Origin: a virus
Taxonomy: Duplodnaviria > Heunggongvirae > Uroviricota > Caudoviricetes
IMG/VR virus record: IMGVR_UViG_2698536618_000026
Location: 1-15,423 of that record
DNA: 15,423 bases
Reading direction: 5' to 3' (one strand)
Shown: positions 1,668-1,802 of the stretch, piece after piece
Position numbering within the stretch: the stretch's first letter is position 1
How the letters are laid out: every line of letters starts with the position of its first letter
Notes under the pieces: model-generated
Seen by the model: only the letters and a program-made list of their open reading frames with translations
Databases searched by the model: none
What the model was told of the DNA's origin: nothing
Made by a program: the position numbers and the translations under genes

Positions 1668-1802
1668 TCATCCACGGCAGTGGCACCACACGTCAAACAT
1701 TCGTTTCACAACTTCACGGCAGTAGAAACCGTCACCATCTCGCGTCAGGTCATAGCGATTGCCGTAACGCTGGTGGCCCCATCGTTCAAATGCTTTATTC
1801 AT
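1668..1802 (-). CDS. Hypothetical Cys/His-containing microprotein (44 aa)
   Basis: Not in the ORF track (under 60 aa). Hand translation gives MNKAFERWGHQRYGNRYDLTRDGDGFYCREVVKRMFDVWCHCRG. AGGAAG SD 6 nt upstream of the ATG at 1802; fills the gap between the neighbouring genes. Confidence 0.35.
   Translation of the reverse strand: MNKAFERWGHQRYGNRYDLTRDGDGFYCREVVKRMFDVWCHCRG

Follow-up and report, generated by a model that had tools for sequence, protein, structure and literature searches.

A conserved 44-residue microprotein gene between a DUF4222 gene and xis at the end of a lambdoid prophage

Gene arrangement at the prophage end

The stretch of DNA analysed here (hereafter the window; 15,423 nucleotides of the IMG/VR record IMGVR_UViG_2698536618_000026) is the same or nearly the same as a lambdoid prophage residing beside mlrA in E. 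coli O39:NM F8704-2. Its leftward early operon is encoded entirely on the minus strand and comprises, in order of transcription, an Ea22-like gene, a DUF551 gene, a DUF4222 gene, a short open reading frame designated ORF44 in this study, xis, and int (Table 1). ORF44 takes up 135 of the 156 nt separating the DUF4222 gene and xis, and thus accounts for what an earlier note on this DNA had described as an otherwise unexplained gap between two minus-strand genes. The product is 44 aa long (MNKAFERWGHQRYGNRYDLTRDGDGFYCREVVKRMFDVWCHCRG) and features three cysteine and two histidine residues, with a CHC motif at the C-terminus. The reading frame, the AGGAAG motif preceding it, and the Cys/His content given in that note were all found in the sequence.

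Table 1. Features of the leftward early operon and the second microprotein gene in the window (positions refer to the window).
Feature	Position	Strand	Remarks
Tyrosine integrase gene (int)	75..1361	(-)	Pfam Arm-DNA-bind_2 and Phage_integrase; last gene of the leftward operon, adjoins mlrA (prophage end)
xis, DUF1233-type excisionase gene (PGAP: xisR)	1395..1649	(-)	Pfam PF06806, E=2e-29
xis Shine-Dalgarno, GAGG	1655..1658	(-)	Lies in the 18-nt spacer from the ORF44 stop to the xis ATG
ORF44 coding sequence	1668..1802	(-)	44 codons; ATG 1802-1800, TGA 1670-1668; member of PHROG 3871
TAA stop of the DUF4222 gene	1806..1808	(-)	3 nt ahead of the ORF44 ATG; translational-coupling junction
ORF44 Shine-Dalgarno, AGGAAG	1809..1814	(-)	Ends 6 nt before the ATG; within the last codons of the DUF4222 gene
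DUF4222 gene, 80 aa (PGAP start)	1806..2048	(-)	PF13973, E=1.1e-13; longest open reading frame starts from TTG at 2084
DUF551 gene	2133-2876	(-)	
37-aa microprotein gene, MTFIK...LRKAYGR	5231..5344	(-)	GGAGG Shine-Dalgarno, -9.3 kcal/mol; stop 2 nt before the ATG of the next gene

The Shine-Dalgarno (SD) sequence of ORF44 had previously been rated as good to strong. The motif is indeed present; however, its strength is moderate, as the calculated pairing energy with the anti-SD sequence amounts to -6.0 kcal/mol, compared to -6.3 kcal/mol for xis and -10.8 kcal/mol for int, which places it in the top 9.4% among the 574 ATGs of the window. Since the SD sequence is embedded in the last codons of the DUF4222 gene and the stop codon of this gene precedes the ATG by only 3 nt, a coupled handover of ribosomes is most likely. 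Between positions 1650 and 1810, no sigma-70-like, promoter-like, or terminator-like site was detected, and a CII-type TTGC-N6-TTGC motif, as in pI-like promoters, was found near neither xis nor ORF44. Likewise, the ORF44 region yielded no Rfam match at E<=1, and its predicted RNA folding was no better than that of shuffled sequences (z=0.19).

Conservation, translation, and annotation status

An open stretch of 44 codons is expected by chance with a probability of about 0.12, calculated as (61/64)^44; the open frame alone is therefore not significant, and it is conservation that establishes the gene. For a species-level comparison, one genome per species was considered; the resulting 18 loci represent about a dozen genera of the Enterobacterales (Escherichia/Shigella, Citrobacter, Scandinavium, Trabulsiella, Superficieibacter, Pantoea, Kosakonia, Intestinirhabdus, Raoultella, Serratia, and Xenorhabdus). 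The frame is unbroken at all 18 loci, starts with ATG or GTG, and encodes 46-50 aa. Among the viral contigs of IMG/VR, at least 437 loci encode a relative of ORF44; the frame is intact in each of the 80 loci examined (41 with a 44-aa form and 39 with a 48-aa form), and 79 of these 80 keep the 3-nt gap between the DUF4222 stop and the ORF44 start. A search for disrupted frames in relatives, as suggested in the earlier note, hence yielded none among 98 related loci, and the microprotein gene postulated there is borne out.

Furthermore, the substitution pattern is that of a protein-coding gene. Mean pairwise divergence by codon position was 0.195, 0.160, and 0.456, and dN/dS values determined against the window copy by the Nei-Gojobori method ranged between 0.02 and 0.23 with saturated dS (median of 0.12 over the usable pairs). 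Across all copies, the ORF44 frame is the only one of the six that is free of stop codons; the overlapping plus-strand open reading frames at 1640-1978 and 1680-1829 were discarded, as stops interrupt them in several homologues. SD-like motifs with a pairing energy of -5.5 kcal/mol or better precede the gene at 13 of the 18 species-level loci, despite unrelated upstream sequences and genes. ORF44 is a genuine, conserved small gene.

Evidence for translation is available from the Stx1 prophage Sp15 of E. coli O157:H7 Sakai, which is integrated at mlrA/yehV and encodes a 44-aa homologue, ECs_5743, that is 80% identical to ORF44. The gene order ECs_3011 (DUF4222), ECs_5743, xis, int, mlrA represents the same arrangement as in the window. 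Table S2 of Hücker et al. 2017 lists an entry, ECs5482, at positions 2,942,020-2,942,154 (PMC5597208). The genome versions differ by an offset of exactly +135 nt, as verified with ECs2989, ECs2997, and ECs3004, and it follows that ECs5482 corresponds to ECs_5743; the length of 44 aa and a composition including six Arg and three Cys agree with this assignment. In LB medium, an RNA RPKM of 118.6, a RIBOseq RPKM of 38.0, an RCV of 0.32, and a coverage of 0.83 were reported for ECs5482, whereas the corresponding values in BHI were 51.9, 15.8, 0.38, and 0.77 (PMC5597208). In both media, the published thresholds for translation (RPKM >=1, RCV >=0.25, and coverage >=0.5; PMC5597208) are exceeded by all three RIBOseq values, the signal being modest (RCV of 0.32 against a cut-off of 0.25). 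Because Sakai harbours several similar prophages, multi-mapping reads could add to it. Spontaneous induction is another possible contributor to the RIBOseq signal. The ribosome-profiling evidence that had been proposed as a check thus exists (PMC5597208), and ORF44 is regarded as translated on the basis of published data for this 80%-identical homologue.

The gene had been reported as missing from the list of open reading frames. It is indeed absent from that list because of a length cut-off (e.g., a default of 60 aa); however, RefSeq annotates exactly this coding sequence as P411_RS23655 (WP_032361437.1), a hypothetical protein. Annotated homologues also include ORF3 of phage BP-4795 (YP_001449240.1), STM0895.1n of Salmonella phage Fels-1 (YP_001700536.1), the annotation of which cites BP-4795 ORF3, and XSB41269.1 of PhiR5_1. 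Of 5,426 complete E. coli genomes, 900 carry the gene, and every sampled match that covers ORF44 bears an annotation of it. Among phage records, 44 contain the gene, and a few of these (phiP27, VT1-Sakai) leave it unannotated. A literature search for STM0895.1n, PBV4795_ORF3, phrog_3871, ECs_5743, and YP_009502644 returned no papers.

ORF44 matches the profile of PHROG 3871, which is listed with function unknown, with E=4.6e-30 and 104.7 bits, residues 1-44 aligning to positions 1-44 of 48. When a profile of the family was compared to 1.84 billion representative proteins, only 28 matches were obtained at E<=1e-3, and neither Pfam nor NCBIfam contained a matching family. The PADLOC defence models gave no match at E<=0.1 for ORF44 or its neighbours. 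Proteins of 80 aa designated DUF4222 within the 90% cluster of ORF44 were considered as possible fusions and turned out to be plain DUF4222 proteins placed there by a clustering artefact. The family is accordingly a narrow one, consisting of proteins of 44-50 aa from temperate (lambdoid) phages of Enterobacterales.

Predicted fold and candidate roles

The ORF44 protein has a calculated mass of 5.5 kDa, a pI of 9.0, a GRAVY value of -1.08, and an aromatic content of 18%, and is devoid of a hydrophobic segment. Structure prediction using AF2 and an alignment of 38 sequences placed helices at residues 3-13 and 30-43 and a beta-bridge between residues 21 and 27 (pLDDT 76, pTM 0.45, moderate confidence), and the predicted fold is accordingly a helix followed by a short beta-hairpin and a second helix. 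An aromatic core and salt bridges, rather than a metal ion, would hold such a fold together. Comparison of the sequence profile to PDB sequences gave no match at E<=10, the best Foldseek match of the model to the PDB had an E-value of 4.4, and the only significant match in a BFVD fold search was a 47-aa member of the family itself. A role of ORF44 as an excisionase or recombination directionality factor (RDF) in its own right was also considered and rejected, since it features neither a winged-helix nor an HTH fold, and matches none of the Xis families DUF1233, Exc, HTH_17, AlpA, and PrtN.

The reading favoured here, with moderate confidence, is that ORF44 is a translated gene for a metal-independent, soluble binder or modulator, is expressed by coupled translation, and does not serve as a dedicated partner of Xis. 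ORF44 would be an accessory gene that stands on its own within delayed-early operons and relies on translational coupling for its expression; its product would modulate some component of the host or the phage while the prophage is induced or early in lytic growth. The binder or modulator role probably applies by analogy with accessory proteins from the exo-xis and nin regions of lambda, together with the genomic context. The conclusion that ORF44 is not dedicated to an excisionase was drawn because the adjacent RDFs are unrelated to each other and the most divergent members of the family reside in the nin region.

These two observations deserve a closer look, as they also bear on the proposal that ORF44 is an accessory factor of excision, which stabilises, times, or antagonises Xis, or acts together with the RDF or the integrase. 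Such a function would explain why the gene is retained immediately upstream of xis. Across the window and the 18 loci, an excisionase-type gene is located directly 3' of most copies, and in three more cases a single gene intervenes or comes next. The adjacency is retained despite changes of the upstream gene and of the RDF family: the genes downstream of ORF44 homologues encode DUF1233, HTH_17-like, AlpA-like (the latter two being sub-threshold matches), lambda Exc, PrtN, and LexA-DBD proteins. At 12 of the 18 loci, the stop codon overlaps the SD sequence of the next gene (GTG-TGA-GGT), the ATG of which follows 7-9 nt downstream. Moreover, in one natural case (P0087 / L024), an ORF44-like domain is fused in frame to a DUF1233 Xis. 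However, no fewer than four or five unrelated families are represented among the neighbouring RDFs, a diversity that speaks against a specific partnership between proteins. In addition, the homologues of five divergent loci (L015, L020, L021, L117, and L118) are situated in the nin region, far from xis, following NinG in L020 and L118, NinB in L021, and NinH in L117. In L015, the gene after the ORF44 homologue is without a Pfam match, resembles the downstream protein of L020, and was read as Q-like. Fusions to upstream genes occur as well (P0071, P0073, and P0077), so that the fusion to Xis may simply reflect adjacency, and the predicted structure of the latter, obtained from a truncated single sequence (P0087), reached a pLDDT of only 36. 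Given the position upstream of an excisionase gene in most non-nin loci and the single Xis fusion, a link to excision is still conceivable; as an explanation of ORF44, we consider it unlikely.

A related proposal is that ORF44 constitutes a portable module, which carries the SD sequence for the following gene at its own 3' end (GTG-TGA-GGT), can be placed ahead of any lambdoid excisionase, and sets the level or timing of excision. It appears to be quite improbable. Conceivable routes would be the coupled translation of xis, a step common to tyrosine-integrase systems, or a host factor such as IHF or Fis, with the nin-region copies representing a secondary, diverged use. If it were true, ORF44 would be a regulator of recombination directionality that is independent of the excisionase family.

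The earlier note had suggested that ORF44 could be a zinc-binding regulatory peptide, in which C28, C40, H41, and C42, with or without H10, coordinate zinc, possibly across a dimer. The protein has three cysteines and two histidines in 44 residues, and in 96 distinct homologues C28 is kept in 94%, C42 in 84%, C40 in 73% (Arg in 14 homologues), and H41 in 66% (Tyr in 16, Glu in 7). All four positions are present together in 49 of the 96. However, at least one ligand is absent in the remaining 47, no more than two of the four are left in 24, and position 10 is His in 13 homologues only and Arg in 72. C28 is replaced in distant homologues by Ala (Xenorhabdus, L021; P0072, P0082, and P0083), Gly (Serratia, L020), or Val (P0076); the Xenorhabdus copy has kept none of the three cysteine positions, and P0072 is a Cys-less or near Cys-less homologue. 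The Cys/His positions are under weaker constraint than a set of about 14 positions with aromatic, glycine, or charged residues, none of them a candidate ligand, which are conserved to 95-100% (F5, E6, G14, R16, Y17, D18, L19, D22, G25, Y27, R29, E30, M35, and W39).

The spacing of the candidate ligands (C-x11-C-H-C) does not suggest a zinc site either, as it includes no CxxC or CxxH knuckle, and no zinc-finger family of Pfam or NCBIfam was matched. According to the AF2 model, C28 precedes the second predicted helix (30-43) by two residues and C40-C42 lie at its far end; at a distance of 12-14 residues, one monomer could not join them unless the helix breaks. Judging from the alignment and the model, zinc binding is regarded as unsupported for the ORF44 family, and the suggestion of a zinc-binding regulatory peptide has little chance of being correct, although a facultative zinc site may exist in the E. 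coli subgroup only.

Finally, it is hardly credible that ORF44 encodes no functional protein at all, being instead a chance or decaying frame, a cis-only leader feeding ribosomes to xis, or an RNA or promoter element: an open frame of this length is not rare by chance and the tight stop/SD layout with xis would permit a pure coupling role, but the dN/dS values, which reveal strong purifying selection on the amino acid sequence across about a dozen genera with saturated synonymous sites, largely refute it, the nin-region copies conserve the protein without xis downstream, and the region features none of the RNA or promoter signals searched for.

As ORF44 is already represented in RefSeq, PHROGs, and a published ribosome-profiling table, its identification adds no unrecognised element. 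Its value rather consists in a well-validated, conserved phage microprotein that is encoded in about one in six complete E. coli genomes, Stx1 prophages at mlrA included, and is most likely coupled in translation to both its DUF4222 neighbour and xis; if it affected prophage excision or induction, it would have a bearing on the mobilisation of Shiga-toxin phages. Two lessons may be drawn from the analysis: a genuine gene was concealed by a length cut-off for open reading frames, and the number of Cys and His residues in a single sequence predicts metal binding poorly.

A companion microprotein and comparison with known systems

A second microprotein had been proposed for the same arm of the prophage, and the 37-aa frame at 5231-5344 indeed combines a GGAGG SD sequence with a conserved reading frame. 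The frame is free of indels down to 70% DNA identity, with start, SD sequence, and stop all kept, and its dN/dS values range between 0.06 and 0.23. It was detected by tblastn in 31 phage records, only some of which annotate it; neither Fels-1 nor Cronobacter phage ENT39118 has an annotation for the 35-aa version that it carries. RefSeq contains no annotation for it in the genome of E. coli O39:NM F8704-2 or in four relatives. This frame is a real, conserved microprotein that has been largely missed by annotation, and may deserve to be added to RefSeq.

The annotated members of PHROG 3871 (BP-4795 ORF3, Fels-1 STM0895.1n, ECs_5743, and WP_032361437.1) belong to the same family as ORF44, comprise 44-48 aa, and are encoded next to xis-int at the prophage end, with an accessory gene on the other side. 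ORF44 differs from them in no essential respect. The window encodes the 44-aa form, which is without the LSVV tail and is separated from xis by a spacer of 18 nt, and differs from the family consensus (V/R) by G9/H10. The Sakai prophage encoding ECs_5743 shares its integration site (mlrA/yehV) with the window.

The adjoining DUF4222 gene also has a characterised relative. RgdR (ECs1581) is a DUF4222 prophage protein that activates LEE type III secretion (PMC3378721, PMC10877973). The DUF4222 protein of the window features the same domain, with 41% identity over 27 aa and the RGD motif changed to RGQ, and is, by sequence comparison, only a distant paralogue of RgdR. ORF44 itself is unrelated to RgdR, and no homologue of ORF44 was found beside rgdR at the Sp7 locus, where a primase gene follows rgdR.

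Within phage lambda, Orf55 (NP_597778.1) is the positional analogue of ORF44, being the small last accessory open reading frame before xis in the leftward early operon (PMC8614690). It was examined as a possible homologue and rejected, with an hhalign probability of 0.3% and a single aligned column. Orf55 has been modelled as three beta-strands and one helix (PMC8614690), whereas a helix-hairpin-helix arrangement is predicted for ORF44. Ea8.5 is a hybrid of a zinc finger and a homeodomain (PDB 2M7A, cited in PMC8614690); unlike this zinc-finger fold, ORF44 possesses no conserved metal site.

More generally, the proteins of the exo-xis region (Ea8.5, Orf60a, Orf61, Orf63, Orf73, and Ea22) are small, non-essential, delayed-early products that affect lysogenisation as well as induction (PMC3824215, PMC8614690). 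ORF44 shares with them the compartment, between the recombination genes and xis, and the expression class, but no homology. By analogy, it most likely works like the small exo-xis proteins of lambda and the Stx phages.

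The 37-codon microprotein and a pseudogene call

The second small ORF named in the earlier note, encoding 37 amino acids, is preceded by a strong GGAGG Shine-Dalgarno (SD) sequence (-9.3 kcal/mol) and was detected in 31 phage records; a 35-aa form is present in Fels-1 and the Cronobacter phage ENT39118. Values for dN/dS between 0.06 and 0.23 indicated conservation, and RefSeq annotation of the ORF was missing from the genome of the window and from four relatives. It looks like a genuine microprotein family that was mostly overlooked by annotation. A further ORF, encoding 181 amino acids, was found to be intact (Features of the window and of locus L024), and the sole RefSeq entry at its position is a hypothetical pseudogene of 179 nt (3210-3388), labelled "frameshifted". 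The counterpart position in PhiR5_1 is annotated with a 171-aa protein, and the pseudogene call may be wrong.

Features of the window and of locus L024
Feature	Location	Strand	Remark
DUF4222 gene	window 1806-2084	-	coupled to ORF44 from upstream
181-aa ORF	window 2873-3418	-	171 aa counted from first ATG
37-aa ORF	window 5231-5344	-	MTFIKHKASHKTACLIAQHGKNYMHIACLFLRKAYGR
ORF44-like domain + DUF1233 excisionase	L024 3977-4336	+	natural in-frame fusion

Two records are attributed to Flavobacteriia hosts, namely locus L012 (record title Chryseobacterium sp. 18061) and OM284015.1 (Elizabethkingia phage EKP1). Among them are enterobacterial-type homologues of the 37-aa ORF and of ORF44, the 44-codon gene (77-80% identity for the latter), and they look like mislabelled or contaminated assemblies rather than evidence of the true host range.

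Junctions, fusions and clustering of ORF44

Homologues of ORF44 end in GTG TGA GGT at 12 of the 18 loci compared (L004-L013, L016, and L019; about locus position 3140-3160), so that the stop codon forms part of the GAGG-type SD of the next gene. The ATG of that gene follows 7-9 nt past this end, whichever family the gene belongs to, and a mosaic junction seems to lie just 3' of the SD. The 44-aa form of the window features a different junction, an 18-nt spacer carrying its own GAGG.

In the fusion at locus L024, the ORF44-like domain is complete (MQISFEVWMSQHHGDRYNL...), the excisionase part keeps its own Met, and an integrase gene comes next. The gene caller placed the start of the corresponding protein, P0087, at an internal ATG of the fusion. 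Two metagenome contigs carry this fusion.

The 90%-identity cluster containing the 44-aa protein is represented by an 80-aa DUF4222 protein and includes several further DUF4222 members, which have no sequence in common with ORF44. This grouping is an artefact of the clustering, in which a read-through fusion may have served as the bridge, and could misdirect the transfer of names.

Comparison with RgdR and Sp15

The start of the DUF4222 gene is ambiguous (ATG 2048, as called by PGAP, versus TTG 2084). Its product shares the domain family with RgdR (ECs1581), a prophage regulator of EHEC controlling LEE type III secretion and motility (PMC3378721, PMC10877973); however, the resemblance is confined to the domain core, and the RGD motif of RgdR is replaced by RGQ.

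The prophage of the window adjoins mlrA (yehV) (1-39 and 75-1361). No stx gene was found within the 15-kb window. The mlrA gene is also the attachment site of Sp15 (VT1-Sakai), the Stx1 prophage of O157:H7, and the int-xis-ORF44-DUF4222 arm is collinear with Sp15.
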